The notes beneath the pieces are model-generated. The model did no database searches. It saw nothing but the letters and a program-made list of their open reading frames with translations, and was not told the DNA's origin. Shown here one piece after another: positions 26,401-62,167 of a stretch of DNA of 64,000 nucleotides. This stretch comes from a virus. The stretch spans positions 1 through 64,000 of IMG/VR virus record IMGVR_UViG_3300023301_000006. One strand, 5' to 3'. The first letter of the stretch is position 1; the number at the start of each line of letters is the position of its first letter. The translations under genes and the position numbers were made by a program.

Positions 26401-26755
26401 AGAACTTTTTTACACGATTATAGTAATACACAAAATTGTCTCCATCAGCACTATTCTTTGCAAATTCAAGAGCTTCTAGTCCTCTATTACTCCGAAATAT
26501 TTCATACTGCTCTGGATACTTATTTAAATAACTGTCTATCGCAATAGAGTCCAACCTATCCACTCCAGAATTAACTAAATTATTTATCGCAGAGAAAACA
26601 ATTCTATGATGTCTTGCTACAAAATCTGACACCTCTAATTTAAATCTATCATGTTTTAATAATGTTGTTGGGTTGTTCAAAAGAGCACCAAATAACATTA
26701 ATACTGCTTTGTTGTCGTACAATTCTTCTATATTTATATCTTTAAAACTACTCAA
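23427..26755 (-). CDS. dnaB: Replicative DnaB-like helicase with intein, two introns and one TGA=Trp; exons 26755-24428, 24135-24118, 23735-23427
   Basis: APTGVGK/T Walker A split by intein, FFDY, TATQ, spliced LRG|AKSMAD|KIDVG, KNRR; TGA 24914-24916. Confidence 0.9.
23736..24117 (-). mobile_element. Group I intron (dnaB intron 2, 382 nt)
   Basis: Exon ends in U, terminal G, P7 core; shares CCCCGTTAGCACTAAATTAATAG with dnaE intron 2. Confidence 0.8.
24136..24427 (-). mobile_element. Group I intron (dnaB intron 1, 292 nt)
   Basis: P1 GTGGT/GCCAC, terminal G, GACTA/ATAGTC core. Confidence 0.85.
24986..26050 (-). mobile_element. Class 3 intein (355 aa) with LAGLIDADG endonuclease in DnaB P-loop
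   Basis: Starts with Ala, ends THN/T; WCT triplet (HLW, MTCF, VTHN); LLGDG and LQGLLDTDG. Confidence 0.88.
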
Positions 26756-27317: not shown

Positions 27318-28349
27318 CTACTTCAATTCGTTCTCTATTCTATTATTTATTAGGAATAAAATGTCTACTTGAGATTTACTCATCTCAGAAACCTTTCTTC
27401 CTTTTCCTAGTTCTTCTTCTACTAGGGTTATTATTTTGTCTGACAACTCTCTTTTGCCCTGAGTAACTTCATCAGGGTCTTCTAAATTACCTAGTAATGC
27501 AATTCCCTCTTCCATAAACGCTCCAGTTAAATCATCAAATCTATTTTTTTCTTCCTGGAAAGTTCCGTGGTCTTCTGCAGTTTCTTCTCTTAAGTTCTTT
27601 ACTTCTTCAGAAACTTTAATGCCTTTTTCTTCCGCCTCAGACAAGACTGCATCTTTAACTGCCTCGGCTAATCCATCATGAGAAAACTCTACGAAAGGTT
27701 TGATATTTTTAAATCTACTTCCAGCTTCAAATCTCTCTGTTCCTCTTAAGAATAATTTTCTGCTTTCAACCCCCTCTGAATTTGTCACCATTCTAGCATA
27801 AGCGTAAATATCAACAGCTCTTGTTACAACCTTGTGAGCTCTCTTGTCTAATGTTGTTGTGATTTTATTGTACTCATGACCACTTTCATCAGTGAAGACT
27901 TTATCTTTATCATGAGAGATGATTACTAGACCATATCCCATTTTTGGAATTTCTCTAATGAATCTATCAAATTCTTCTTCATACATTCCATAACCTTGTC
28001 CGTATCCAATATCTCCTATTTTACCAACTTGTTCTCTGTTACAGATATAATCTTTTACGTACTCTACAGCTATGTCAGCAGTGTCGACTATGACAGTCTC
28101 ATACTGGTCCTTGACTTCATCTTTCGACAACTGTCTTAATACTTCTTTAGCTTCAGTTCATTTATTAATTGATACAGCCTTTACTCCGAATAAAGCACTG
28201 TACCCTTTTTCAAAAGCTAATAGTAGAGGTTTTGGAAATTGACTTGCATTGTATGTTTTGCCAACTTTTTTCTCACCATAAATCATTACTGAATACCCCT
28301 TTAGATTGGTACTAGGGATATGTTCTTCCACATTCATTAAATCTAACAT
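27318..28349 (-). CDS. AAA_24/Sak4-like phage NTP-binding protein; one TGA=Trp
   Basis: YGEKKVGKT, FEKG, IVDT, ISH, AGSR; TGA 28158 joins Walker A and Walker B halves. Confidence 0.82.
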
Positions 28350-33554: not shown

Positions 33555-33995
33555 ATGTCCTTGAGTAAAAGTCTCTTATATAAAGACATAACTAATCAAG
33601 TAAGGGGTAACTTTAAAGTATTGAAACTAAAAGGGATAGAACACGGAGAGTATTATATTCCAATCCACAAAGGAGCGGTAAAAACAGGAATGAAAATTCC
33701 TCGTGAGAACTTAAAAAGAGCAAGTCTTATTTATCAAGTAGGAGATGTAGTTAGAATAAAAACTAAAGAGCAGTTTGCAAGGGATTTCAAAATAAACTAC
33801 TCAGAACAAGAAAGAGAATTTTATGTTAGAACCTCAAATACATTTTCAGTTAGTATGAATGTTTACTGTGGTAGAGAATTTGTCATTGTTGGATACACGC
33901 GTGAGAGGGGGTATATGCTAAAAGACATCCCTTTCTTTAGTTTTGACTCAGATATGTTTGTAGCAAATAGGTGTTTTCTGTATAAAGAAATATAA
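33555..33995 (+). CDS. YxEV-tag protein, family B
   Basis: VGDVVRIKTK...MNxYCG...FDSDM; ends LYKEI. Confidence 0.75.
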   Translation: MSLSKSLLYKDITNQVRGNFKVLKLKGIEHGEYYIPIHKGAVKTGMKIPRENLKRASLIYQVGDVVRIKTKEQFARDFKINYSEQEREFYVRTSNTFSVSMNVYCGREFVIVGYTRERGYMLKDIPFFSFDSDMFVANRCFLYKEI

Positions 33996-34209
33996 AATTG
34001 TTCTTGATAATTTATTAATATTGTTATATAATATAAGTATAGAAAGAAAAAAATAAAAAAAGAAAGGAGTAACTATACTTAAAATAACTAGAAAAACTTA
34101 TTGACATCTTGTTTATATTGTTATATAATATAAGTATAGTAAAAAAAAAGAATTATTTTAAGTAACTAGTAGTGTTGACGAGAACATCATAAAAATAGTA
34201 GGAGGATTT

Positions 34210-36821: not shown

Positions 36822-36896
36822 GGGAATATAGTCAAGCGGTTAAGACACTACACTTTCACTGTAGTATCGCAAGTTCGATTCTTGCTATTCTCACCA
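36822..36896 (+). tRNA. tRNA-Glu(TTC)
   Basis: Cloverleaf, CTACA-CTTTCAC-TGTAG, CCA. Confidence 0.85.
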
Positions 36897-36950
36897 TATA
36901 CCTTTTCCCCTTTGTTGTGTGGGAAATTAAATATAGCACAACTACATTAT

Positions 36951-37025
36951 TGCCCTTTCGTCTAATGGTTAGGACGCCAGACTTTCACTCTGGAAACTTG
37001 AGTTCGACTCTCAAAAGGGTAACCA
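36951..37025 (+). tRNA. tRNA-Glu(TTC)
   Basis: CCAGA-CTTTCAC-TCTGG, CCA. Confidence 0.85.
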
Positions 37026-37030
37026 AATAA

Positions 37031-37116
37031 GGAGTAGTATGCAAATGGTTAAGCAAACGGGTTGCTAACTCGTGGCGGTTAAACGCTTGTAGGTTCAAGT
37101 CCTATCTACTCTTCCA
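37031..37116 (+). tRNA. tRNA-Ser(GCT)
   Basis: ACGGG-TTGCTAA-CTCGT, long variable arm. Confidence 0.88.
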
Positions 37117-37120
37117 ATAT

Positions 37121-37198
37121 GTAAATATAGCTCAGTTTGGTTAGAGCATCTGGTTGCCAATCAGAATGTCGTGGGTTCAATTCCCACTATTTACTCCA
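37121..37198 (+). tRNA. tRNA-Gly(GCC)
   Basis: TCTGG-TTGCCAA-TCAGA, U73. Confidence 0.88.
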
Positions 37199-37204
37199 AA
37201 ATAA

Positions 37205-37281
37205 TGCAGAGTGGAACGTTGGTTTTTCCATCGAGGCTCATATCCTTGATTACATGGGTTCGATTCCCATCTCTGCATCCA
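37205..37281 (+). tRNA. tRNA-Met(CAT), possibly initiator
   Basis: CGAGG-CTCATAT-CCTTG. Confidence 0.75.
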
Positions 37282-37284
37282 TAA

Positions 37285-37376
37285 GGAAGGTTACTCAAAT
37301 GGTTATACGAGCGTAGCTTTGAAAGCTAATGTGTCTGAAATACGGCTTGGGGGTTCGAATCCCTCACCTTCTTCCA
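37285..37376 (+). tRNA. tRNA-Ser(TGA)
   Basis: TAGC-TTTGAAA-GCTA, long variable arm. Confidence 0.85.
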
Positions 37377-37382
37377 AAATGT

Positions 37383-37457
37383 GTATGTATAGCTAAAAGG
37401 CTTAGCATTCGGCTGTTAACCGAAAGTATATTGGTTCGAATCCAATTACATACGCCA
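37383..37457 (+). tRNA. tRNA-Asn(GTT)
   Basis: TTCGG-CTGTTAA-CCGAA, G73. Confidence 0.85.
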
Positions 37458-37728
37458 TAAGTCCCACTATGAGGGCATAAAGGCTTTGATGGAAACCCCA
37501 TCTGAAAGAGCGTATGGAAGCTCTAGTGTCTAAATCACATTAGTTTATAGATACGACATTTAAAAACAAATTTTTAAGAAATTGAATTGTGATAGCCTAT
37601 TAAGACTAAGGGCTTAAAATACAGAGTCTCACCATTGGCGGCAACCGAAAGTCGTGGGCTTAATTGCCCTTTCAAGTTATTAGGAACCCATTGGGGCTAA
37701 AGGTTTAAAATAGATAGTCCTATTATAA

Positions 37729-37799
37729 CTAGGTGTGGGATAATGGTTGTCCGCTAGCTTTGGGAGCTAGTGACGGGGGTTCGATTCCTCCCACTTAGA
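37729..37799 (+). tRNA. tRNA-Pro(TGG), CCA not encoded
   Basis: CTAGC-TTTGGGA-GCTAG; acceptor CTAGGTG/CACTTAG. Confidence 0.82.
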
Positions 37800-37924
37800 A
37801 GTGGATATAAGTATATTGTATCTAGTTCTAAGTGCACAATAGTTTTGAGTAAATAAAAAAATGTTGTTGCAAGATTATTCATTTAATGATATAATATAAG
37901 TATAGAAAGAAATAAAAAAAATAA

Positions 37925-38001
37925 GGTCGTCTAATCCAACTGGCAGAGATAATAGGTTTAAGCCCTATCAAGTGTGGGTTCAACTCCCACGGCGACTACC
38001 A
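37925..38001 (+). tRNA. tRNA-Leu(TAA), short variable region
   Basis: ATAGG-TTTAAGC-CCTAT. Confidence 0.8.
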
Positions 38002-38008
38002 ATAATAA

Positions 38009-38082
38009 TGTGATATAGTCAAGTGGTAAGACAATAGACTTTGAATCTATCAGCCTTGGTTCGAATCCAAGTATCACAACCA
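38009..38082 (+). tRNA. tRNA-Gln(TTG)
   Basis: ATAGA-CTTTGAA-TCTAT, U1-A72. Confidence 0.88.
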
Positions 38083-38251
38083 GAATGAAGGAGTAGAGGT
38101 CGCACCTCGAGGTAGGATGAAAGCTATCCGTAAAGGGAAAGCGGATAAATATCTCTGATTGATAGTTAGAGAAAAGTTTTTTGTAGTCTTAATAATACCA
38201 CCAACGCATTGGCTCTAAACGTTGAAAAAAATATAGAGAGCCATTAAGTAT

Positions 38252-38326
38252 GGTGGTTATAGCTCAATGGTAGAGCACATGGTTGTGGTCCGTGCTACTT
38301 GGGTTCGATTCCCAATAATTACCCCA
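38252..38326 (+). tRNA. tRNA-His(GTG)
   Basis: CATGG-TTGTGGT-CCGTG, G-1:C73. Confidence 0.88.
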
Positions 38327-38330
38327 ATAA

Positions 38331-38407
38331 GCTCCAATAGCTCAATCTGGTAGAGCAACTGCCTTGTAAGCAGTAGGTTGTAGGTTCAATTCCTATTTGG
38401 AGCTCCA
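38331..38407 (+). tRNA. tRNA-Thr(TGT)
   Basis: ACTGC-CTTGTAA-GCAGT. Confidence 0.9.
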
Positions 38408-38443
38408 AAATCTTTTCCATACCAAAGGAAAAGTGTTTAATAT

Positions 38444-38528
38444 GGTATAGCTGAGCACTGGTGAGCTCCGCAGACTGTAAATTTGTCGTCGAAAGGCTTT
38501 GTTGGTTCAACTCCAACCTATACCACCA
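38444..38528 (+). tRNA. tRNA-Tyr(GTA)
   Basis: GCAGA-CTGTAAA-TTTGT, long variable arm. Confidence 0.88.
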
Positions 38529-38533
38529 AATAT

Positions 38534-38609
38534 GTTCCAGTAACTCAGTTGGGAGAGTGTCTGCCTTACAAGCAGAAGGTCGTAGGTTCGAGTCCTACTT
38601 GGAACACCA
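38534..38609 (+). tRNA. tRNA-Val(TAC)
   Basis: TCTGC-CTTACAA-GCAGA. Confidence 0.9.
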
Positions 38610-38615
38610 AAATAT

Positions 38616-38690
38616 GCGGATATCGTATAATGCTTATTACCTCTGGCTTCCAACCAGATGACGAGAGTTGAATTCTCTCTATCCGCTCCA
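38616..38690 (+). tRNA. tRNA-Gly(TCC)
   Basis: TCTGG-CTTCCAA-CCAGA. Confidence 0.88.
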
Positions 38691-38713
38691 AATTACTAAT
38701 AGGAGGCAAAGAA

Positions 38714-38806
38714 ATGTGAATATGTGAAAAATGTTCAAAAACTTATAATTATCGTCCAAAAGATGATATTTGTGAGAAATGTACTGCAGATTGTTATTTT
38801 CAATAA
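38714..38806 (+). CDS. 30-aa zinc-ribbon peptide with TGA as codon 2
   Basis: AGGAGG RBS then ATG-TGA-ATA-TGT: M-W-ICEKC...ICEKC. Confidence 0.65.
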
Positions 38807-38824
38807 AAAGGAGGAGGTACTACA

Positions 38825-39145
38825 ATGATGACTGAAGAAGAATTATTTGAAGACTTTGACACTTGAGAAGATAGGTTCTTAGAAGCTTACGAAAATGGTG
38901 TGAAATTTGATGAAAGTCTTATGGGAAATTTAGCTTGGGAAGCAGAAGTACAAAATGAACATGACAAGCTTCGTTGGCAAATAGTAATGGAATCTATATT
39001 CCAAGTCAAGAACAGATACTTTTGTATTGACTGGCAAAAAGGTTTAACAGAGAGCCAAATAGATTCATTCTCAGAACAACCATATGAAGTTGAGAAGATA
39101 GAAAGAGAAGTTACTAAGATGGTTGTTACTTGGGTAAAGAAATAA
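38825..39145 (+). CDS. Hypothetical protein; one TGA=Trp
   Basis: GGAGGAGG RBS before ATG 38825, TGA 38864; paralog of 10692-11024. Confidence 0.7.
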
Positions 39146-39153
39146 CCATATTA

Positions 39154-39230
39154 GGACCTGTAACTCAGTTGATTAGAGTATTCGACTCATAATCGAACGG
39201 TCATTGGTTTAAATCCAATCAGGTCCACCA
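39154..39230 (+). tRNA. tRNA-CAT (Ile2 or elongator Met)
   Basis: TTCGA-CTCATAA-TCGAA; GGACCT acceptor resembles Firmicutes Ile2. Confidence 0.8.
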
Positions 39231-41758: not shown

Positions 41759-42091
41759 ATGATGATTTTGCGAAGTTTTTTATTCGAGAGAGACATAACA
41801 ATTATTAGACCAGAGAGTAAGAAACAAGCCGAAGAACTAATGTTGGAGCTAAGCAGGAATGGTATTCGTTGGAATGGCGGTCGTTCGTTATTAGATGAAA
41901 TGCACCTCCATACACGAAATAGGGAGTTCGCGTATTTACTCCAAAAATCTAGTGAAGGAGTATACTCTCTTACTCGTGGGTATTATTGGGGTTACCTTGA
42001 AGATATGAAAAAATATAAAAGATATCCTAGTGGTTCTATATACTCTTATACCAACGTTGTGGTAGGTAGCTTCATTTATAGTGTTATATAG
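41759..42091 (+). CDS. YxEV-tag protein, family A
   Basis: ELxxxGIRWxGGxSL; ends IYSVI. Confidence 0.7.
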   Translation: MMILRSFLFERDITIIRPESKKQAEELMLELSRNGIRWNGGRSLLDEMHLHTRNREFAYLLQKSSEGVYSLTRGYYWGYLEDMKKYKRYPSGSIYSYTNVVVGSFIYSVI

Positions 42092-42104: not shown

Positions 42105-42467
42105 ATGCAAAAATTAAAAAAATTTAAACTTGACAAAAACGAAAGCTTTGTTGTTCACGTTATTGATGAAGAACAAGGGGAAGTCTTATTACGCATTTTA
42201 GACTCCATGGGATTTAAGTGGAGTGGAGGATTCTCCTTATTAGAAGAGACACATTATAAAGATAAGTCAAGTATCGCTTACGAGATACAGGAAGGAGAAG
42301 GCAATTTTGTGGTCTACTATTCTTCATTAGGGTTTTATGAAAGATACTACGAAGTTAATTGTAAAAAGTACACACATGCTCTTGAAAATCCAGTAAGATT
42401 AGAAGCATACAAAATTTATTCATTCGAAGATGCGATTTCAAGAGACAGTATATATCAAATTATATAA
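42105..42467 (+). CDS. YxEV-tag protein, family A
   Basis: GFKWSGGxSL; ends IYQII. Confidence 0.7.
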   Translation: MQKLKKFKLDKNESFVVHVIDEEQGEVLLRILDSMGFKWSGGFSLLEETHYKDKSSIAYEIQEGEGNFVVYYSSLGFYERYYEVNCKKYTHALENPVRLEAYKIYSFEDAISRDSIYQII

Positions 42468-42542
42468 AAATAGTTATTGTAATTTCGCTTATTTTTTGAT
42501 ATAATATAAGTATAAGATAAAAAAAATAAAAGGAGTGAAAAA

Positions 42543-48990: not shown

Positions 48991-50015
48991 TAAACAACAC
49001 CTCCTGAATTGATTAAATCATTGACCAACTTAAAAGATTTATTAAATCTGTTTAGATAGTCTCCATTGATTATCTTATACTCTATCCCAAGTTCATCAAA
49101 CATTCCTTTTAATACTTCATTGTTGTCTTCCCTAACCTTTTCCTCACCTTGGTCACGTAGTCCGTCTGCAACCCATTTTACATCAGGTTCAAGAAACAAG
49201 TATAAATCATACTCTTGATTTTTTGCCATCTCATTATATAGTTTTTTCTCATTATTGAAGTATATATCAAAATAGTATTGTGTTACAACTACCTCACTAT
49301 CAATGAACAATACTTTGTTTGAGTCTTTTACCTTATCTATCTCATGTACTTTCTGTTTAAAGGCAATCTCATCGAACATATCCTTTGTAAGGAAGTTGGA
49401 ATATTCTTCGCAAATATCTCTCCCATACTCTGCAACGTAATTGGTATTGAATACTCTTGCTAAGTTTTTAACAAGAGTGGATTTACCACAACTCTCTGTT
49501 CCAATGACTGCAATTCTTTTAACAAATTCCGCACGAACGTAATTAGGCATCTTGTCCCAATTCCCATAGACATCTTGTCTAATTTCTGTCGCACTTACGT
49601 TTACTACATTTCTTTCATTGTCGATTACGATATGTTTCGCATTTGGGTATAATCTATCAAAGGTTTCAGAATATCCAATCTCTGAGCTAAAGACAAAATC
49701 TATTTTTTCCCCTATCTCTTTTTTAATTTTCTCTGCTCCTTCTTCCCATGAATAATCTTCAACCCCATAATCATCTTCAATTTCTATTATGAACACGTTG
49801 TCTATCTCTGAAGCAAGTTTCCCCAACCAAGAGAGTCTTGTGGAAGGGTCTACATAAGGAAAGTTGTCCTTGATACTTAGTTTCTTCTCTCTCTTTTCTG
49901 AATGTGTCATTACAACATATAGTTTATCTACTAAATTTGACGCATAAGTTATTGCAAACACATGCCCTGAATGTAATGGATAAAATTTACCACCAATAAA
50001 ACCTACTGTTTTCAT
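48990..50015 (-). CDS. nadR: NadR-type bifunctional NMN adenylyltransferase / ribosylnicotinamide kinase
   Basis: GKFYPLHSGH, SATEIR, GTESCGKST, EYGR, WVADGLR; no HTH. Confidence 0.9.
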   Translation of the reverse strand: MKTVGFIGGKFYPLHSGHVFAITYASNLVDKLYVVMTHSEKREKKLSIKDNFPYVDPSTRLSWLGKLASEIDNVFIIEIEDDYGVEDYSWEEGAEKIKKEIGEKIDFVFSSEIGYSETFDRLYPNAKHIVIDNERNVVNVSATEIRQDVYGNWDKMPNYVRAEFVKRIAVIGTESCGKSTLVKNLARVFNTNYVAEYGRDICEEYSNFLTKDMFDEIAFKQKVHEIDKVKDSNKVLFIDSEVVVTQYYFDIYFNNEKKLYNEMAKNQEYDLYLFLEPDVKWVADGLRDQGEEKVREDNNEVLKGMFDELGIEYKIINGDYLNRFNKSFKLVNDLINSGGVV

Positions 50016-50027
50016 ACTATTAACCTC

Positions 50028-50714
50028 CTATAATATCTTAAGAACTCTACGGAACATTCCATGAAATCTACCAATGTCTCTATCAAGATGATAGTGTCCG
50101 TAATACCATTGATAATCATGCTTGTGCTCTCTTAGTCTATTTCGAATAACGTTCATTTGAACTTCTGTGGGGTCGTCATAGTTGTTTTCCACAAGCTTTT
50201 CAGCAATTGAGTAAGGAGGTGCGTGTGTAATAACAAAGTCAATGTTCTTCTGACACTCCTCAATTGCTTTTATTGCTCTAATAGCTTCTTCATAAGTTGG
50301 TTCTTCTTCTTTCCACCAAGAAACAAACTCTGTTCTAAAGGCTTTGTCATGACTTCTTGCTCCGCCGAATGTCAAGAAAGTTTTTCCTTGAATATCATAC
50401 ACTTGACCTCTTTTTAAATGAAATACAGAATCATTAATTTTCCCAACCTTACCACCATACTTGTCAATAACAGGATATTGGTGAAGTAAATTAAAATTCT
50501 CATGGTTGCCGTCAACGAATAGAGTTGTAAAACTCTTTTCACTCAACCAATCCAACCAATACCTCATCTCGCTATTGTCTTTCCAAATTATACCAAAATC
50601 GCCACAGATAATAACAACATCTTCTTTAGTCATTTTCCGTTGGTCTGGAAAGTTATCTATACTTAGTCTTCTAATGTCAATGTTACCATGGGTGTCCCCA
50701 GTAATATAAATCAT
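50028..50714 (-). CDS. Metallophosphoesterase
   Basis: GDTHG, GDFG, GNHE, GHYH. Confidence 0.88.
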   Translation of the reverse strand: MIYITGDTHGNIDIRRLSIDNFPDQRKMTKEDVVIICGDFGIIWKDNSEMRYWLDWLSEKSFTTLFVDGNHENFNLLHQYPVIDKYGGKVGKINDSVFHLKRGQVYDIQGKTFLTFGGARSHDKAFRTEFVSWWKEEEPTYEEAIRAIKAIEECQKNIDFVITHAPPYSIAEKLVENNYDDPTEVQMNVIRNRLREHKHDYQWYYGHYHLDRDIGRFHGMFRRVLKIL

Positions 50715-50728
50715 CGTTTCACTCTCCT

Positions 50729-51046
50729 TTAAATTTCTTTGTACAAATACTCTATATTCTTTAAATCAGCAATCTCATAAATTTCTTCATTAGAACGAAC
50801 TTCTTTCATTTCGAGATAAGTGTTTACACTTCCATAGTTTACCATTTTAGTGTTGTATCTATTAGTATAAATTCTATAACATAAATCTCTAGTATACATA
50901 TTCCAACGGTTGTTTATTAAAGGCTCCTGGCAAAATGAAATGTACCCTAATCTATCAAGTTCTTTGCACAGTTCTCTTTCGTCTTCGCCATTTCGGACTC
51001 TTACTATCGTTGTTTGTCCATTTAGGATTTCCTCATTTATTATCAC
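50729..51046 (-). CDS. YxEV-tag protein, family A
   Basis: ELCKELDRLGY; ends LYKEI. Confidence 0.7.
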   Translation of the reverse strand: MIINEEILNGQTTIVRVRNGEDERELCKELDRLGYISFCQEPLINNRWNMYTRDLCYRIYTNRYNTKMVNYGSVNTYLEMKEVRSNEEIYEIADLKNIEYLYKEI

Positions 51047-51141
51047 ACCTAACTCCTCCTTTTTTTTCTTTTTCTCTTATATTAATATTATATCACTTTT
51101 TAGATATTTCTGCAATAAAAAAATGCAGTTTTTACGCTGTA

Positions 51142-51810
51142 CTATGCTTGTTGATTCATTTTGTTCCAATTATATAAACCATACACTGAATTTACTAAAT
51201 AAGCAATCCACATAACCAACACAGAAATATCAGTTCCACCATTACTCAACGCATAAATCCAAAGGCATATGGAAGCCACATTAACGCCTATCCATAACAC
51301 CCATTGTTCTACATAACGCATCACCATTAAAATCATTGCTATAATAGATAGAATAGTTGATATTGAATCAAAGTAAGGCATATTACCACCAAGAGAAGCC
51401 AACCATTGCCCATAAAATAAAATGGCTACAATTGCAATTACGAACCAAGTAAAACGTTGTTTTTGAGTCATAATTTTAGTTTTAACTTCTTTGACTTTTG
51501 AATTCATATATTTTCGCCACAATAGAATACCAACAAATTGCATTGGTAAGAAAAATATTAGGTTTAACATCACTTCTCCGTAAAATTTCCATGAATAAGC
51601 CACCCAAGCATATGCTAATACGTTAACAATACCAACGTAGTAATTAGATATTTTACCTTTGGCTGCTAAAACTACACACCATATACCAGTTAAAGATGCA
51701 GTTACTCCAATCAGACCATCTCCCCAATAAAGGGATAATGATAATATTAATAGGGTAGATACCCCCAACCATATTTTTTCAAACGTCTTCCAATCATTAA
51801 AGTAATTCAT
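51142..51810 (-). CDS. pnuC: Nicotinamide riboside transporter PnuC
   Basis: Multi-TM; PYFDS, EQWVLW, N...G...W. Confidence 0.88.
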   Translation of the reverse strand: MNYFNDWKTFEKIWLGVSTLLILSLSLYWGDGLIGVTASLTGIWCVVLAAKGKISNYYVGIVNVLAYAWVAYSWKFYGEVMLNLIFFLPMQFVGILLWRKYMNSKVKEVKTKIMTQKQRFTWFVIAIVAILFYGQWLASLGGNMPYFDSISTILSIIAMILMVMRYVEQWVLWIGVNVASICLWIYALSNGGTDISVLVMWIAYLVNSVYGLYNWNKMNQQA

Positions 51811-51818
51811 AATTCCTC

Positions 51819-53104
51819 CTATACTTCTTTATATAATGGACAGTCATCTTTTATTTCTTCATATTTGTATAAGAATACGCGAGAATTGTTGTTTGCCTCC
51901 TTTATTGAAGATTTGTAGATTGATTTTGATGGAGGCTTGGGTATTTCATATATTATACCTTTTTCTTTCTCATCAAAGTACTTCAAATCAATTAAAGTTG
52001 AACCACTCTTCCATCTATAACCATTCTTGTGTAGTTCTTTAGACAACTCATTTATTTGGTCTTTATTTGTGAGTATGACTCTAAGACCTTGGCTCAATAG
52101 TTCTTGCCTTATTTTCATTTTATACCTCCCCGTATATTGGTTTTAATAGTGAAATGGCATCTATTTCAATTATCTTATAATTTTGACGATAGTGACTAAT
52201 AAAGCTATCTGCTTCTCAGGAAGAACTGGTCTCCCAAATATATCCTTCCCCCATCAAAAATAATGTACTATGCTCAATAGTGCGAAGTGACTTTACCAAT
52301 GGACCATCGAAACTCCAGCGGAGTTTTTTGTCAATTGCATATGACTCAAACAACTTAAGTATTTCTTTAGTTCTTATTGATACCACATAGTAATTCACTT
52401 TATACCTCCTTATATAAAAAGATTGCTTCCCATATGTCCTCAAAGTTTAGTGTGATATCATCTTTTATGTCCAAATTTTCAATTTTATCATATGACACAC
52501 GAAGTTTATCTAAACGGACTTTATAATATAAAGGATACATATATTCAGGAGGAAGCCACTCTGGCAAAAAATCCCCATCTTGCCAACGGTAACCTAACTT
52601 ATTCAATGCTTTACTTACATCAATTACATCTGGTTGATTTTCTAATATAACGCAAAATTCATCTGGTAATCCTTTTCTCAATATCATATTTTACACCTCC
52701 TGGTATAGATGGAATGGTCTAACTAACATATCAGAATGAAAAGAATAGCCAGTCTCTCCGTCTAGGTTGTATAAGTCATTTTGCTTTCTTGTTATTTCAA
52801 AAGTTTTTCCGCAGAACTTATTCATCTCTGCCGAAAAACCGTATCGAACGTCACTTATCTCAAATTCCCCCTGTAGATGATGGGTAGGGTTAATTAGAAA
52901 GTGTTTTTCAAACTCCTTTTTGGTTTTTACCCTTACTATGTCCCCAACTCTATAGACAGGAGAATATAGTTCTAAACTATCTGGTTTGAACGTAAAATCG
53001 AGTCTCTTTCTCTTGAGAAATGGTCGATTGTCGTTAACCTGAAAAGCCATTCCTTTGTGGGTTCCATCTTTCGTTGTATGTAACACATCCATTGCAATTC
53101 CCAT
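51819..53104 (-). CDS. Four YxEV-tag genes: 51819-52118, 52120-52398 (TGA=Trp at 52216), 52400-52687, 52691-53104
   Basis: Ends LYKEV, IYGEV, LYKEV, LYQEV; families A, C-like, A, B. Confidence 0.75.
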
Positions 53105-53315
53105 AAATTCACCCCTTTAAAATTTTATTTTTTATTTCTTTCTTATACTTATATTATATCACTTTTTAAGAAAACTTACAACAAAAAAAAGTAGAAAAAT
53201 AAATTCTACTCTGGATTTCATACTAATTAAACATTATAACTAACATGATTATGATAAACGCTCCCCCAACTAAAGTCAATAAGAATGTGATTAGTAAATC
53301 TCCCATAATCTCCTC

Positions 53316-53513
53316 CTAGCCTATTAAAATTGTACCAATGACGAAACTAAAACAAATTACAACAAAGGTTAAGTACCATACAAAAGGTTCGTCTTTTCGT
53401 TCATTTATGCCAAATGCGACCAATTCTGCAACAAGAAATACTATTGTTACTGTAATTACAATTACTAGTATGCCAGTAAGGAGCCTTGTAAAAAGACCAA
53501 TCATTGCTTCCAT
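53316..53513 (-). CDS. Small membrane protein
   Basis: Two hydrophobic segments, GGAGG RBS. Confidence 0.6.
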   Translation of the reverse strand: MEAMIGLFTRLLTGILVIVITVTIVFLVAELVAFGINERKDEPFVWYLTFVVICFSFVIGTILIG

Positions 53514-53515
53514 AA

Positions 53516-56292
53516 TTAAACCTCCTCATATAAAAAATTTTTATCTAAGATTTCTTCAAAACTAAAAATGTCATAACCCTTCCTAAGATAAACACAAACA
53601 GAAGCTTGATACACTTCTTTTTCTCCACCAAATGGCTTAACACGGTAAGCACGATTTCCCCCCGTTAAACCGAAGTAATTTAATTCCCTTAAGTCTTGTC
53701 CCATAGCCCAACTGTAGCCAATGCGATTTAACTCCATTGAAAGCTCATCAATTTGTTTCATCGTTCTTACTTTTACTACAAATCCTGTATCTAGTAACTT
53801 TCTCTTTATTTTCAATGTTTACACCTCCTTGAAGATGATTGGGATTTTAGTCAACATGTCTGCATCGAAAAGGTGGTAGGCGGTTTCATCATTAGCGTAG
53901 TCTTTACACTCATCTAGAATGTACACACCTTCTTCTTCAATACTTTTTATCTTAAAGATTTTACCACTAAGCTTATTCATATTTGTAGAAAAATAACACC
54001 TAGTTGTTACAAAAAAGCCATCAGAGAATGGGGATTTTTCAACTCTAAAATATCTACTAAATTCTTCTTTGGTCTTAACCCCAACTATTTCTCCAATTCT
54101 AAACTTAGGACTATAAGGTGTTAAATTACTCTCTTTAATAATTATTGAGGTGTCTATCTCACCTAAGTAGCACGGAAAAAAAAGACCCTCACTCAAAGAA
54201 CACAATTGAAAACCACCTTTAATACTGTTGTCTTTAGTACTGTATAGTCGTGTCGTTATTATTTTCATTTCTACACCTCCTTGTATATAATATTGTGTAA
54301 CTTGACAAGCATGTCTGAATCAAAATAAAACCCCATTCCATTTACTAATCTAAAAGTACCATCACTGGTTTTATGACTTATCTCATATTCTTTTCCACAA
54401 AATTCATTCATGTCTTGTTGAAAATTAGAACAAGTAATTACCCTAAATCCCCATGGTTGGTCATTTAAGATTGTAAAGTCTTTTTCAAATTCTCTTTTAG
54501 TCTTAACTCTAACCGTTTCTCCAATTCTAAATCTAGGAGCAGTCAACTTAATGACAGATGAATCATCAATGTGAATATTAAAGTAGGAACCTTTTTGGAA
54601 AATCTCATATCTATTACCATTTCTTATTGACTTGATAAAGAAATTTCCTTTTATAGTTCCATCAGTTGTTTTATATAGAGTTTCTTTTTTAAAGTCCATT
54701 TATACCTCCTCGTAAATACTTAATACATTAACCAACATATCAGCGTGAAAGTAAAACCCTCCATTTTCCTCTGATAAATAAGTGTCAGAAGTGTCATCTT
54801 CTTTTCTAACCCTAAAAATCTTTCCACTATATTTGCTCATCGCCTCAAAAAACATAATAGATGCACCATGTACGGAAAATAAATTGTCATACTTACTTTC
54901 TTTAATTAAAAAATGTTTACTGAATTGCTCTTTAGTTTTTATTGCAACTAACGTCCCACTCCTAAAATTAGGAGAATACTTTCTTACTCCCTCTTTCTTT
55001 GGATTAAAATTAAGAAACTCACCTTTTAAAAAAGCTTCACCCCCTTGAAGTTTAAAAACTTCTCCTTCTTTAGTGATATACAGTACATATTCCTCCATCT
55101 TTAAACCTCCTTATAGATTACATTTTCTTCCCAAATGTCTTTAAACTTATAAGACCCCTTCCAAGAAGGTGTGTAATCAGATAGTTCGCTATATGTTATC
55201 CTGGCAAGGTCTATATGAATTTCATAATAAACAGGGAAAAAGGATTCTGGTGGAAACCAGTCTAGAGGGGCGTCACCCTCTTGCCACTTATATCCAATCG
55301 TATCTAATTCCTTAGAGATTTGAATGGCTTCTGATTTATCCATTACTTTAACAATAAATCCTCTTTCCAATAATATTTTCTTTATAAACATGTTCTACCT
55401 CCTTTAGATTTCTGAATATATTTCATTGTTTTCTGCGAACATTTCTCTAGAGAACACATACGAGCCAACACCTTTTAAATCATATGAATTTATTGAAGGG
55501 TTAGCGTGGATTATAGTATACGTTTTACCACAGAATTTATTCATGACTTCTGAGAACAAACGTGGAACTCTAGCTCTAAAGTTAGATTGGCTCCCTACAA
55601 CAAGATTACTATGATTTTTTTTAAACTCTTGAAACGTTTTTATTCTAATCCTACTTCCTTTTCTGAATTGGTTTATCCTATATACATCAAAAGTTTCTCT
55701 CAGTTGACTCTCTGAGTAGACTTTGCCTTCCACAGTTCCTCCCCCTACTACTCTTCTGTGTTTCTCAATGATAGATATTACTCCAGTTTTCTTATGTATC
55801 AATTGACTCCCTCTTTCTATTAAATCCATCTATTCTCACTTCCTCTCCAAATATTCTTTAGATTTCTGAATATATTTCATCGTTCTCTGCAAACATTTCT
55901 CTAGAAAACCCATACGAATTAATACCGTCCAACTCATATAAATTCCATTCAGGTGTGGAGTGAACTATAGTATACGTTTTGCCACAGAATCTATTCATTT
56001 CTACTGAAAATGAACGGGGAACCTTAACTCTGAAGGGAGGTTGGTTTCCTAGAACAAGACCCTTATGACTCCTTTTAAACTCTTGAAATGTTTTTATTCT
56101 AACTCTGTCCCCCTCCTTAAATTGATGTATTCTATATCCCTCAAAAGTTTCTTTTAGTTGACTCTCTGATAGGTAGTTACCCCCCACTAAATAAGCTATA
56201 GTTCCATTGTCTCTTCTTACGTTTCCTTCATTAACAAATACTTCTTTGGTTTTTATAGATACTAATTGGCATCCTCTGTTCGTAAGACTCAT
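53516..56292 (-). CDS. Seven YxEV-tag genes: 53516-53815, 53819-54268, 54271-54699, 54700-55098, 55101-55391, 55404-55829, 55858-56292
   Basis: Ends LYEEV, IFKEV, IYKEV, IYEEV, IYKEV, IYSEI, IYSEI; families A and B; last two are close duplicates. Confidence 0.78.
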
Positions 56293-56387
56293 TTATTTCC
56301 ACTCCTTTATATTTTTTATTTCTTTTCTTATACTTATATTATATCAGAAAATGAATAAAATTACAAGAAAAAAATGTAGCTTTCAAG

Positions 56388-58846
56388 CTACACCTCTTTG
56401 TAAATTGGTGAGAGTAAATCAATTGCGTTAATTATTTGAAAATTACTTGGATTCTTTTCTTGTTGAATGTATCCATCATTAACTGCTACATCAATCGTCC
56501 AGAAGTCTTGCTCACCCATCAAGATAATCTCAGTTCTTCTTCCCATAAGTATTTTGAAATCAGAGTCTATATTATCATTATTATAAAAAAGATTATTAGT
56601 CTGTGCGTAGTGATATACTATTTCTATATCAGTTTTATTTCTTATTCGGATTATTGTGTAGTCCTTCATATTATTACACCTCTTTATAAAATCCTAAGGG
56701 CAAGTCAATTGCGTCAATTACTTGAAAATTGTCAAGATTCATTTTTTGTTGGCGATATCCATCTCTCAGTGCTATATCAACCGTCCAGAAGTCTGTCCCA
56801 TCTATCAAGATAATTTCAGTTTCTCTTCTCATAAGTATTTTGAAATCAGAGTCTATTTTATTCTTATTATAAAGAAGATTATTTGCAAGTGCATAGGAGT
56901 ATATTAACATTATGTCAATTTCACTTTTTACTCGGATTATCGTATATTTTTTCACGTTACTATACCTCCTTGAATATCACTTCAAACATGGTTTCTCTTA
57001 TGTCTATTGTTTCATAAGTGAAACCCATAGATTGTAGAGCTTTTAATTCCTTGTTGTAATCTACGCCAAAACTAACCCGATTCCATACACTTATACACCC
57101 CACTTGTGCCCTTGAGGGTATATCAGAAGAATAATTGTGAATTCCTGCTGACCTTAAGTACTCTGGGAAATGTCTACGATTAAATCCAATTCTAAAATCT
57201 ATTACTTTATAATCCATACTACACCTCCTTGTAAATGTAAATAAAATCTTTTATATATTTAATGCCTAACTCTTTCACTTCATTTCCTCTTTTTTTCTCA
57301 TATCCAAGAGAATCATCATAGTTCTCCACAAGCCAGATAGAGTTATTTTCTATTATTACTCCTTGACAAGGGTAATTAATTAGTGCGTTTTCGTTTCCTG
57401 CGTGTTCTCAGACGTAATCCTTTACTTTTGAAAAAATATAGAACATGTGTTTCTCAGAAAGATTAGTTAATCTAATTAAATCTATGGAACTCATAATTAC
57501 ACCTCCTGATATAATGGAAAAGTGTCTAGAACTTCTATAAAATCATAAACTCGATTACCCTGTCTTTTATAATAAGAAACGGGACATTTTGTTACTAATT
57601 TAGAACTACGTATGTGGTAGGCAATATCCCTTTCTGCTCCTTCAAAGTAGTTAAGTTTTTCTAAGTCTCGTCCACTTTCCCATTGACAACCATCGTCACT
57701 TAACATTTTTGAAAGCATTCTGGTTTCATCGAGAGTTCGTAATCTTACTACAAATCCATTTTCTAATAAATCTCTTCTTATTTTCAAAAATTACACCTCC
57801 TTGTACGTTTTATCAACGGGTCCAATTAACATATCTGCGTCAAAGCTATAAGGACTTCCTTCAAGACGATAAGTCCCATCAAAAGTAACAGTAGACACTT
57901 TAAATTTTTTGCCACAATGGTCATTCATACTGGGTAAAAAACCCTTTTTTGTATCAACTAAGAATCCACTGAATTCATCTTCTGGGAATCCCTCAACGAC
58001 TGTAAAATTCCTTTTAAACTGCGATTTAGTTTTTACCCACACTATATCTCCGACAGAGAATCGAGGAGAGTCGAGAATTAGCTCCTCTTCTTTAAGAATA
58101 ACATCAAAATCCGTAACTCCTTTATAGATAGGGTGATATACGGGGTTGTGATTACAAGATGAAGCAGGTCTAGTGGTAAATCCACCTTTGATTCTATTCC
58201 CCTTTGTCTTGTAAAGTACACATTGACATTCTATCATATCTACACCTCCTCGTATAAGAATTTGCATACGTAAATTTCTTTATAATTATAAACAACAAGT
58301 CCTTGTTCTTCATATGTCACAGCACTATTGTATGACACAAACCCACCTTTCCAGCCAGGTTCCATACTATACGCCAAGGTACCTAGGGACATTCCGAAGA
58401 AGTTATGTTGTATTAAATTTCTACCTGACCACCACCTATAATCAAGAGAATCAAGTACTATTGAGAGTTCTCTAACTTCTTCCAACGTTTCTAACTTAAC
58501 TACAAATCCTTCGTCGAGTAACTTCTGTCTTATTTCCTTCATAGTATTATACCTCCTTGTACAAAAAACTTTCCTCAAGAATTTCTTCATATTCGCAAAA
58601 AATCTTCCCCGTTTTTCTACAAGACTCAGAGTTAGTAAATCCTACGTAATGGCTTCCAGAATAAGGCTCTATTACGTATACTAAATCTCCTCTTTCTCTT
58701 GGACTAGGAGTAAAGGTCACTAGACTTTCATTTGACCACCATTTGTAGTTAAGAAGGTCAAGTAATATTGAAAGTTCTTTGATTTCTTTCAACGTTTTTA
58801 GCTTAACTCTAAATCCTTCTTCGAGTAATTCCTGTTTTATTCTCAT
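56388..58846 (-). CDS. Eight YxEV-tag genes: 56388-56669, 56674-56955, 56960-57217, 57219-57494 (TGA=Trp at 57408), 57497-57787, 57791-58237, 58240-58542, 58547-58846
   Basis: Ends IYKEV, FYKEV, IFKEV, IYKEV, LYQEV, TYKEV, LYEEV, LYKEV. Confidence 0.78.
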
Positions 58847-59114
58847 TACATACCAGCTTCTTTCATTAGCTCCTTTTCGTAGGCGTCAGAAGCTTCAATA
58901 GATTCAATGTTCCCTTCTAGTGCATCTCTGTACTCTCTTTCGTTAATTGCGTCCATTCCTTCGTGCTCCATAGCTTCTACTAGTTGGCATTGGTCTTCAT
59001 ATCTGTTAATGATTGTCATATTATCTCACTCCTTTTTATTTTTTATTTCTTTCTATACTTATATTATATCAAAATACGAACAAAATTACAACAAAAAAAA
59101 GTAGAAAATTAATT

Positions 59115-62100
59115 CTACTCTATTCGTTCTAAAAGTATCTTACTAGACTTTCTAAGAACATCATTTGATTCTTTACTGTCTGGTTTAAAACCAAGATTAT
59201 GTTCAATGTAGTCTTGAGCTTCCTCAATATATTTCGCCATAGTCATCATCTTTCTTGTTGGATTCCCAGTTCTTAAAACATCAAAATCTTCTTCTGACAT
59301 GAATGAATCTATACTACTTATGAACTTATTTAAATTTTTACTCATACTAACACCTCCTTACATAAGTAAATACCCTAAGACGAACACAAATCCCATAATA
59401 AAACACATGAATAACAATACAATAATTAGTTTATTCATATTATTTACCTCCTAGTTTAAAGTTCTTCTTAAAATTTCCCAGTACTCTAATGTGATAACTT
59501 TTTCCACAAACTCATAATCCACTTTACCTAGTGCAAAGCCAGCTATCATTCCATCTAAATATGTGTCTAAGTTTAAATGGTTGGTATCTGCATAATCAAC
59601 TATTGAATTTGTTTCTGTGTTTACTATCGCAAAGGTTTGCCCATCACTATTGTATATGTCATCAAATCTTATGTCCCCAAAATTCATGTCCATACTGGTA
59701 AAATATGACATCACTTGCGGGTCCACGATGTAATATTTCTCAATTATTAACATATTACTCGCCTCCTTCTGGGTCTTCTATTTTATAAGTAGTGACTGGG
59801 GTGATTTTAAGTGATTGAATAAAAACACATGAGGTTTCAGCAAATCCACGAATACTATCTTCTTCTTCTTCTTCGACTTTGCTAAAGTCAAACATCTCAC
59901 ACTCTGAAAACTCAAAGTAAGGTGTATTGACGATTGCCCCAAGAACATCATTCTTGTCTGTTAAACACACTGGAACGCAACGTACTTCACTGTGTTTGCC
60001 ATCTAAATCACTCATCATCCATTCATCTCTTAATATATCAAACAATTCTTCAGCCTTATCTCTGCGGCACAATATTCCTTCAAATTTTATTGCTCCTGAG
60101 TACCACCCTTTTCCACGAAACCCCACATAAGCTAAATTCTCTAATTTCATAATTACAATACCCCCTTAGGCTTATAGTCCTTACAATTACTCACATCTGG
60201 GATTCTAAGAGATAAATCTAAATCCCAATGACCTTCAAAACACGCCATACCATCTTTCTTCATATTCTTGCAACCGTTACATTTTAATTGCTTCATTATG
60301 CCTCCTCGTAATACGCGTAGTCTAATAATTCAAAGTTTTTTAACGTCTTTACTACTTCAGAAGTTTCAAGACCAAGACTGTGAAATGTAATAACTAGTCC
60401 ATGGTACAGAACCTTATAGTCACAAATTACGAACTTACCGTCATACTTAGCATATACTTTCGCCCCTGACCTAATGTTTTCCATAGCAGTCTTAAAATCA
60501 ATTTCTTCATACTTCTTATTCTCTAGTAACTCTAATTGATTTTCTTTTGCGTACAATACATTATAAATTAATCCACCTCTCTTTGAATGAATGATAATTC
60601 TAGGGTATACTTCTACAAAATCTGCTTCACGAGAGTCAATATCCAACATATCACAATAATCTGCCCACACTTCCCATGGAAAATCACTCTTGAGAATAGT
60701 AAATACTCCATTTCTCTTACTTTTACGAATATTATCCATTTGACACCTACTTCCTTTTTATAATTATAATTTACTATCTCTAAATGCAAGTTCAGGGGAG
60801 AAGAATTCTTCATATCTCTTTTTCCCCATCAATTGAGATACTCTCACTGGTTTAGTGTTAGACTTCAAAGAGTCAAATTTTACCGCAAACCCACCCAATT
60901 CTATTCTATCTGGGGCGTTATAGCAACTTCCCTCTTTCTCAGGTTCTTCCATAGAAACCATTGCACAGTTGTGAGTTTTCCATACCCATTCGTATCTGTC
61001 TTTTAGCAATTTTAGTAACAGATATTCATTTTTAGTTAGCATATTAATCCTCCTTTTTTCCGTTATATTACCTCCTTGTAAAACGTATGGTCGGATAAAT
61101 CACAAAAATTATAAATTTTATCACTCCCCAAGCACTTCACAGGTGCATATCTATCGTATTTACACATATAAACCCTAACTAACTCAACCCCCACACCATC
61201 TTCTTTTATAAATACATTGCTTTCTTTAGATAAATACTCACTTTCTGAAATTTTTAAAAAGGCTTCTTTAAAACTTATTTGTTTATACTCTTTGGCTTTT
61301 TTAAATGCTATGTTGCCTTTTAGCAACCCGATTAACACACTTAGTTCATTGACCTCTTTTAGAGGTATTGACTCAGTACCAAAGCTAATACTGGAATATA
61401 TTCTATCATCACCTACCCACCAGTCGTAATCTGAGTATTTGTGGTCTAACAACTTTATTCTTCCGCCACACTCTATTCCATTGTCTAATCTGAATTGCTC
61501 AACATAGTTTTTTCTCATTACCTCCTCAATTATTTCTGTCCAAGTATCAACAGCCCCTACAATTGTGCCATCAGGATATGATATTTCAAAGTAGAGCATG
61601 CCAGACGAAAACGGCATAGAGTGTTTTACTTTAGATATAGTGCCTATTTTTCCCTCAAACTCTCGCATTTCCTTGTTGAATAATTCCTTTTCTTCGTCTA
61701 ATACGATTTTTACTTTTCTACCTACTAATACTTCTTTCATAGTATTCATCTCCTATTCATTAAACAAGTATTCTGTAGTTACAATGACCACAGAAGATTA
61801 CTTCATTATAGTCCCATAGTGATGTGTCATCATATTGTATTAAGCTACCACAGTGTCTACAGGTCACCGTTTTTATTAAGCGTATGTGGTTAAAACCTTT
61901 ACTGTCATGATATTTCCTCCTTTTGTAAGATTAACAATCCTTATATATTATATTTAATTTTGTTCTTACATAATAGTTATAGTGAAATAATTGAAACATT
62001 TGGATTCCATAGGTAGTAGAATCGTTTATTTCAAAAAGAAGGTATTCGTCAAACGTCTCGCTATACTTTACCACATATTTTTCCTCACGGTACTCAACAA

Positions 62101-62167
62101 AAGTTTCCAACCCATGGTTTAACCTTTCAAACATTTCTCTTGACGGTATTTTATGGTATTCAGTCAT
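59115..62167 (-). CDS. Block of small hypothetical genes (59115-59345, 59451-59753, 59755-60150, 60296-60739, 60764-61042, 61063-61749, 61931-62167)
   Basis: RBS-supported co-oriented ORFs; three end in tag-like YEEA, YKEVI, YKDC. Confidence 0.65.

Follow-up and report, generated by a model that had tools for sequence, protein, structure and literature searches.

A shared C-terminal tail of small phage proteins that may be coded both as a ribosome-binding site and as a peptide tag

Why should small proteins of different families end in the same few residues? The question is raised by an array of genes on the minus strand of the IMG/VR virus record IMGVR_UViG_3300023301_000006, at positions 50729-58846 of the window analyzed here, which comprises bases 1-64000 of one 72,423-base contig. 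The proteins encoded by this array share the tail hydrophobic-[Y/F]-x-E-[V/I]-stop, and its last codons frequently form the Shine-Dalgarno (SD) sequence of the following gene. The tail could thus be a peptide with a function of its own, or the in-frame reading of a ribosome-binding site. The explanation that we consider somewhat probable is that it is both, i.e., a dual-coded element that would act as a ribosome site and as a peptide tag for a putative shared partner.

Extent of the shared tail

Among the 449 open reading frames (ORFs) of at least 30 aa found in the window with genetic code table 11, 20 end in [YF]xE[VI], 19 of them on the minus strand at 50729-58846 and the other one on the plus strand at 33555-33995. 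The composition of the sequence predicts 0.45 such ORF ends (binomial P = 1.7e-26), demonstrating that the tail is real and non-random. When TGA is read as a sense codon, the gene 52120-52398 (ending in IYGEV) is added and 57219 is extended to 57219-57494, which gives 20 tail genes in the array. A preliminary description of this DNA had counted as carriers 20 array genes together with 33555, 41759, and 42105. The 20 array genes and 33555 do carry the tail, whereas the plus-strand genes 41759 and 42105 end in IYSVI and IYQII, keeping the hydrophobic-Tyr pair and the aliphatic end without the Glu. Three near-variant tails (YYEEA, FYKEVI, and IIYKDC) are encoded just upstream of the array range. 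The constant core across the copies is hydrophobic-aromatic-x-x-aliphatic-COOH, Glu being preferred and not obligatory. The genes concerned, assigned to families A to E, are the following ("SD overlap" meaning that the tail codons form the predicted SD of the next gene):

58547..58846, minus: family A, tail FLYKEV (AAG GAG GTA TAA, then 4 nt and ATG)
58240..58542, minus: family A, tail FLYEEV, SD overlap
57791..58237, minus: family B (predicted tandem SH3-like), tail TYKEV, SD overlap
57497..57787, minus: family A, TTG start, tail PLYQEV, SD overlap
57219..57494, minus: family E, probably A-like (borderline profile score), in-frame TGA at codon 29, tail IYKEV, SD overlap
56960..57217, minus: family D, tail IFKEV, SD overlap
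56674..56955, minus: family C, GTG start, tail FYKEV, weaker SD AAAGAGGTG
56388..56669, minus: family C, tail IYKEV, followed by a terminator, no start downstream
55858..56292, minus: family B', tail IYSEI (TCA GAA ATC), SD past the stop
55404..55829, minus: family B', tail IYSEI, SD AGGAGGT directly after the stop
55101..55391, minus: family A, tail VIYKEV, SD overlap
54700..55098, minus: family B, tail IYEEV, SD overlap, whole-gene insertion relative to the contig L001
54271..54699, minus: family B, tail IIYKEV, SD overlap, protein used for the family B model
53819..54268, minus: family B, tail IIFKEV, SD overlap
53516..53815, minus: family A, TTG start, tail FLYEEV, SD overlap
52691..53104, minus: family B, tail HLYQEV, SD overlap
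52400..52687, minus: family A, tail FLYKEV, SD overlap
52120..52398, minus: family C' (divergent A), GTG start, in-frame TGA at codon 61, tail PIYGEV (GGG GAG GTA), SD overlap
51819..52118, minus: family A, tail PLYKEV (AAA GAA GTA), SD built on the TAG stop (TAGGAGG)
50729..51046, minus: family A', GTG start, tail YLYKEI (AAA GAA ATT), SD AGGAGAG after the stop
33555..33995, plus: member of family B lying outside the array, tail FLYKEI (AAA GAA ATA), with a promoter and no coupled gene after it
41759..42091, plus: family A member, tail FIYSVI without Glu, SD after the stop
42105..42467, plus: family A member, tail SIYQII without Glu, followed by a promoter
60296..60739, minus: near-variant tail YYEEA, 147-aa protein of another family (GAG GAG GCA TAA TG), same ending in the L001 ortholog
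61063..61749, minus: near-variant tail FYKEVI, 228-aa protein, AAGGAGGTA not serving as SD
61931..62167, minus: near-variant tail IIYKDC, 78-aa protein

Two of these genes, 57219-57494 and 52120-52398, had been described as regaining the tail only by read-through of a TGA stop. They are better read as ordinary genes in which TGA encodes Trp, because the TGA of family E is conserved at a family A Trp and because the domain content of the replication genes points in the same direction. The in-frame TGA is the same codon (29) in 57219-57494 and in its homolog at 3482-3757 of the related contig L001 (66% identical), and it aligns with the near-invariant Trp (at least 90%) of the family A motif GY.W. 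With table 4, replication ORFs fuse, a DnaB_C domain being encoded past a TGA and an AAA_24 domain across one (24380-26755 and 27318-28349). The array genes stop only at TAA or TAG. These observations support that the phage reads TGA as Trp.

In the table 4 translation, a LAGLIDADG/homing-endonuclease segment separates the N- and C-terminal domains of the DnaB-type helicase encoded at 24380-26755 on the minus strand. This segment covers residues about 450-519 and has the look of an intein.

A probable ribosome site and peptide in the same codons

The overlap between the tail and the AAGGAGGT of the next gene, proposed in the preliminary description, is found in 14 of the 20 array genes. These tails have the form NAG/NGG GAG GTN plus TAA or TAG, and the next start codon lies 0-6 nt further on the same strand. 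The GGAGG sequence is 4-9 nt away from the start (ATG, GTG, or TTG) in the 14 junctions. The upstream gene thus contains, in its final codons, an SD at a working distance from the next start, and these junctions fit predicted translational coupling. One further junction is weaker, and five tails (50729, 51819, 55404, 55858, and 56388), as well as that of 33555, do not serve as SD. In these SD-free tails, the SD is found past the stop or makes use of a TAG stop, or else a terminator or promoter comes next. In the tails that overlap the SD, the codons at position -3, counted back from the stop, are only AAG, CAG, GAG, GGG, and AGG. The residues at this position are K, Q, E, G, and R because the SD site needs NAG or NGG codons. 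The only constraint on position -3 is thus the NAG/NGG form required by the ribosome-binding site.

The Tyr codon is outside the ribosome-binding site, and its conservation was examined by comparison with L001, a 10,048-base metagenome contig that is the only syntenic relative found. It contains the same array with 18 tail genes, and its proteins are 45-82% identical to their orthologs of the window. The genes of this relative are given below as L-numbers (e.g., L9183) and, where needed, those of the window as W-numbers. Substitutions were counted in 17 ortholog pairs, ungapped, back from the stop. W54700 has no ortholog (best identity 39%) and was left out, as were W55858 and W56674, each a second paralog of a gene that had been paired.

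At position -5 (hydrophobic), 10 codons are identical and seven changes are synonymous, with no nonsynonymous one. At position -4 (Tyr/Phe), there are 10 identical codons, six synonymous changes, and a single Y/F change. Both positions together show 13 synonymous changes and one conservative amino-acid change, whereas positions -6 to -8 show one synonymous and 29 nonsynonymous changes (Fisher, 3.7e-9). The remainder of the genes (15 equal-length pairs, 1,537 codons), with 223 synonymous and 550 nonsynonymous changes, also differs from positions -4 and -5 (Fisher, 1.3e-6). The other tail positions have fewer changes, i.e., none synonymous and five nonsynonymous at -3, two and two at -2, and three and two (V/I) at -1. 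This contrast indicates that selection on the protein, and not on the nucleotides, preserves the hydrophobic and aromatic residues at -5 and -4, next to a linker that is hypervariable. Conservation of the tail at the DNA level only, which was the outcome that could have overturned the preliminary proposal, is not what the synonymous/nonsynonymous comparison reveals.

The copies released from the SD give a second line of evidence. As had been noticed earlier, the tail persists where no ribosome-binding site overlaps it, and these copies keep the peptide with AAA/TCA GAA ATH/GTA codons (33555, 50729/L9183, 51819, 55404/55858/L4833, L6738, L7457, and 56388/L4302). Several of them have a new SD directly past the stop, as if both functions had been separated. 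These codons indicate that the Glu, in most copies, and the aliphatic C-terminus are also kept by amino-acid selection when the ribosome site lies elsewhere. The SD-free arrangements of 50729/L9183 and 55404/L4833, which are shared by both contigs, are older than the split between the window and L001.

Several other origins of the Tyr codon were considered and dropped. TAY could be part of an extended SD, but it is not known to pair with the 3' end of the 16S rRNA, and no TAY is found upstream of the other SD sites of the genome. It could belong to a -10 box, but TAC and TAT are equally common. With A-U richness, K, N, I, or F would be permitted as well, and the loss of a stop codon (TAA/TAG to TAY) leaves the maintenance of the Tyr and the Phe variants unexplained.

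Carriers, operons, and genomic context

Family A comprises eight array genes and two genes on the plus strand. A search of 1.84 billion representatives with its profile gave 185 proteins at E <= 1e-3, a large number of them with 2-5 tandem repeats. The domain, of about 85 aa, has no name and is widespread in phages (e.g., 58547-58846; P0016-P0157). The tail is present in 10 of the 150 best of these 185 homologs, all from this phage clade, and the other 140 do not have it; the tail-less distant homologs end soon after the last strand. A hidden Markov model (HMM) built from 47 of these tail-less distant homologs was run against 41 array proteins deprived of their last six residues. Every one of the 18 A genes was found by it (E 1e-8 to 1e-20), as was C' (E 1.8e-5 and 0.008). 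One E copy gave a weak match (E 0.018), the E copy of the window having an E of 1.4; C, D, and B were not recovered among the 41 proteins. These scores identify C' (52120) as a family A member by sequence, and E (57219) is probably another one, with a borderline score. The AlphaFold model of family A is an alpha/beta fold with a predicted local distance difference test (pLDDT) score of 86.8, residues 95-99 being below 50. No PDB match to this model was found by Foldseek or VIA-align (best Z 3.3), and the family A profile found nothing below E 0.33 among the PDB sequences. PHROGs and Pfam searches on ten tail proteins gave no family.

Family B comprises seven array genes and 33555. Its AlphaFold model is beta-rich, with a confident C-terminal domain, a low-confidence N-terminal half, and residues 137-142 below a pLDDT of 50. 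The best Foldseek match is the MZM-REP/Mib repeats of Mind bomb (4xi6, E 9.2e-3, probability 1.00, TMq 0.37; also 4tse), and among the Atlas feature neighbors SH3_15 is present in 29% of the members, with an Atlas TM of about 0.5. The likeness to the Mib repeat/SH3_15 (PF18346), seen for family B only, thus comes from the best structural matches and part of the Atlas neighbors. However, TM scores are weak, the N-terminal half is of low confidence, and neither 54271 nor 55404 has a PF18346 match at E <= 1. Family B may be described from the model as tandem SH3-like, with a possible resemblance to the Mind bomb repeats. The predicted models of A and B are different, and hhalign found no significant similarity between both profiles; therefore, the tail appears to be carried by at least two unrelated folds. 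The preliminary description had spoken of at least three unrelated-looking families, and of these at least two different folds stand, while C' merges into A, E probably does so too, and 33555 is a B member. The tail is at the extreme C-terminus, outside the folded domain of both models, and it is conserved as a peptide on these unrelated carriers, as in a C-terminal linear motif. A loose F-x-[DE]-[IM]-[LFW] element is common to all families, 10-13 residues before the end.

The array appears to be a hyperplastic block of early genes organized in three or four operons, all of which have one and the same cassette of terminator and strong promoter at their head. The cassette combines TTGTAA-17-TGATATAAT with a stem-loop or T-run before it and, after it, a conserved leader and an SD followed by the start, that is, a repeated unit with a sigma-70-type early promoter as in the promoter-early stem-loop (PeSL) cassettes. 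Copies in the array region are at 59114-59020, 56387-56293, about 53190-53105, and 51141-51047. The mapped elements are:

59063..59091, minus: early-type promoter cassette at the head of the first operon of the array
56368..56399, minus: terminator-like hairpin over the last codon and stop of 56388
56338..56366, minus: early-type promoter TTGTAA-17-TG-TATAAT, copy of the repeated cassette
53153..53181, minus: early-type promoter, cassette copy

About 36 copies of the promoter core TGATATAATATAAGTATA (with up to three mismatches) are found in the contig on both strands, behind TTGACA or TTGTAA (e.g., 59054-59091, 56329-56366, 53144-53181, 51078-51095, 34024-34041, and 42497-42514). A T-run or stem-loop often precedes them, accompanied by a conserved A-rich leader. 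A terminator was called only at 56399-56368. The weight is placed on the repeated cassette, which fits strong early transcription, because a generic promoter scan gave 73 sites, not above the 63.8 +/- 7.0 of the shuffled sequences.

Compared with L001, the window has three extra genes, i.e., one C and one B', which are duplications, and the B gene 54700, whose insertion falls precisely at the boundary of one stop and the following start. A52400 and C'52120 have changed places. These differences break at the coding tail junctions and not at the promoter cassettes, and they may reflect recombination at the junctions, although no recombination intermediates are visible. The rearrangements would stay translatable because each gene brings the SD of its successor. 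Two small hydrophobic membrane peptides without the tail (53316-53513, 65 aa, and about 53225-53305, about 27 aa, both on the minus strand) are encoded where L001 has a family B gene.

The contig has a phage-type gene content that includes a split DNA polymerase, RecJ, a DnaB-type helicase, ribonucleotide reductase, an endolysin, a NadR-like adenylyltransferase, and PnuC. There are 15 tRNA genes clustered at 36822-39230 on the plus strand, and ARAGORN found no tRNA with a UCA anticodon. A megablast search with 50000-59500 and tblastn searches with one family A and one family B protein found no match in 50,697 phage records, and the best identity of the helicase (tblastn) among cultured phages is 41%. 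By these comparisons, no cultured phage is close to this one. A search for related loci in viral contigs with family B gave no relatives among 198 pattern matches, and a search with the neighboring phosphoesterase gave two distant phages (L002 and L003, 42-43% identity) that have no such tails. Among the public sequencing runs listed, a single one contains the stretch 52000-58900, a DNA run labelled as a hypersaline lake metagenome (X1), which is possibly the source of the contig and would then not be independent of it. No RNA run containing the array stretch was listed.

Explanations for the tail

In the dual coding that we propose, the sequence shows NAG-GAG-GTN plus the stop to be the SD of the next cistron, so that any gene might follow any other and be translated, and whole genes are gained, lost, and transposed exactly at the tail junctions. 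The last three tail codons would be mainly the ribosome site, whereas the first two residues and the aliphatic end would be the selected peptide, placed on a flexible linker. A tail that follows a hypervariable and probably disordered linker behind unrelated globular domains looks like a short C-terminal recognition motif, by which the fast-evolving early proteins may reach one common partner, from the host or the phage. We infer that a common recognition handle is the most economical function, serving docking or, with lower probability, timed degradation. The preliminary description had suggested a docking, packaging, or degradation signal of an expandable effector library, perhaps for anti-defense, a role on which the present results give no indication.

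Several points weigh against this proposal. The Glu is not absolute, since L8080 ends in YKIV, L2737 in YEKV, 41759 in YSVI, and 42105 in YQII; L7776, which ends in YREI, was also entered among the counter-examples. The 61063 gene encodes one residue past the tail; either a free Val/Ile carboxylate is probably not strictly required, or this gene is no member. The comparison DNA comes from one relative only and the paralogs are not independent; the substitution test thus represents one genome pair, aligned without gaps from the C-terminus. The models predict a disordered tail on both folds, low pLDDT being weak evidence of disorder. No distant homologs of family B were found, and the tail cannot be demonstrated as an add-on in this family. 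The selection on the hydrophobic-Tyr pair could serve solubility or folding instead of docking. Finally, Pfam scans of 20 further contig proteins revealed no receptor candidate (PDZ, TPR, or similar).

Could the tail be just a by-product of gene packing, with an idle peptide that results from the in-frame reading of an SD and stop junction spread by recombination? Canonical SD overlaps in 14 of 20 junctions are what this explanation predicts, position -3 tracks the nucleotides and not the residue, and the breakpoints of gene indels and swaps coincide exactly with the junctions; such shuffling is driven by PeSL-type cassettes in T4-type phages, according to Arbiol et al., 2010 (PMC2839356). The non-array gene 526-1209 also reads KEV from an SD in the same frame, but it ends in ELKEVY, with no aromatic residue at -4, and the other SD sites of the genome have no TAY before them. 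Packing alone does not account for the 13 synonymous against one nonsynonymous changes at -4 and -5 when 29 of the 30 changes of the linker are nonsynonymous, or for the AAA GAA ATH codons that keep the peptide where the SD is displaced. In addition, about 12 nt of identity at the junctions is little for homologous recombination. We regard this explanation as unlikely.

A C-terminal degron, by which a host or phage protease or unfoldase would clear the early array proteins together at the late switch, would suit the same evidence as a docking tag, namely the extreme position of the tail, its predicted disorder, and the aliphatic last residue of every copy, as well as the early-type promoters of the genes. 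C-terminal degrons of the ssrA type are well established. By inspection, however, the tail does not resemble known motifs such as LAA-COOH, two charged residues in the last three are atypical for nonpolar C-terminal degrons, and the Pfam scans of 20 other contig proteins identified no protease partner; thus, we find a degron quite improbable. The least credible alternative, to which we give very little weight, is that the tail is the last conserved structural element of a single ancestor of all the carriers. The divergent family A members (C' and probably E) and the loose F-x-[DE]-[IM]-[LFW] element in all families speak for it, but the predicted architectures of A and B differ without significant profile similarity, the tail is unpacked in both models, and 140 of the 150 best family A homologs end without it. 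Likenesses to the HbYX, EEVD, PDZ-ligand, and pYEEI motifs were also considered and dropped, since the registers do not fit.

Some components of the proposed dual coding have precedents. Shared C-terminal docking or targeting peptides include the acidic tails of T7 gp2.5 and gp4, the cargo-loading peptides of encapsulins, and the ssrA-type degrons. The array tail is likewise short, flexible by prediction, and extremely C-terminal on different carriers, but its sequence is different and its codons double as a ribosome-binding site. PeSL cassettes of T4-type hyperplastic regions are reportedly also treated in a 2014 work by Comeau and colleagues (PMC4122927). Coupled junctions of the termination-reinitiation type, with the SD inside the upstream ORF, are known and are reportedly treated by Huber et al., 2019 (PMC6728339). 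The array resembles them in its stop-to-start distances of 0-6 nt on one strand and in the strong SD within the last upstream codons, but it repeats one frame and geometry in some 20 genes of different folds and keeps two residues outside the SD at the amino-acid level. PeSLs are described as mobile regulatory cassettes of the hyperplastic regions of T4-type phages by Arbiol et al., 2010. The array shares with these regions the hyperplastic block of small orphan early genes, the repeated cassette of terminator, sigma-70-type promoter, SD, and start, and the whole-gene differences seen against L001. In contrast to these regions, most array junctions lack a PeSL and repeat the coding tail instead, and the phage is not shown to be T4-type. 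Open-access literature in PMC and bioRxiv gave no account of a C-terminal tail shared by small phage proteins, of C-terminal residues constrained by an SD, or of "YKEV". The searches of this literature brought up neither this motif nor any dual-coded tail of small phage proteins; SD-in-ORF coupling and PeSL-type shuffling are already known.

More tentatively, and with odds that we place below even, the tail may be a universal plug in a cassette grammar, in which the same 15 nucleotides would be an address label and the ribosome site of the next gene, the label docking any fold onto one host or phage hub. If this were true, effector domains could be shuffled, duplicated, and imported without losing expression or targeting, yielding expandable effector libraries. 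The finding also calls for caution in annotation: the K/Q/E-E-V part of a conserved C-terminal motif can be set by the ribosome-binding site, and only a codon-level comparison separates the selected peptide from it. Most of the small genes that virology has not explained lie in the hyperplastic regions of phages, and a tag common to many orphan proteins would give a single experimental handle on the whole set. Dual coding of a ribosome site and a peptide motif would show how shuffled gene cassettes stay functional.

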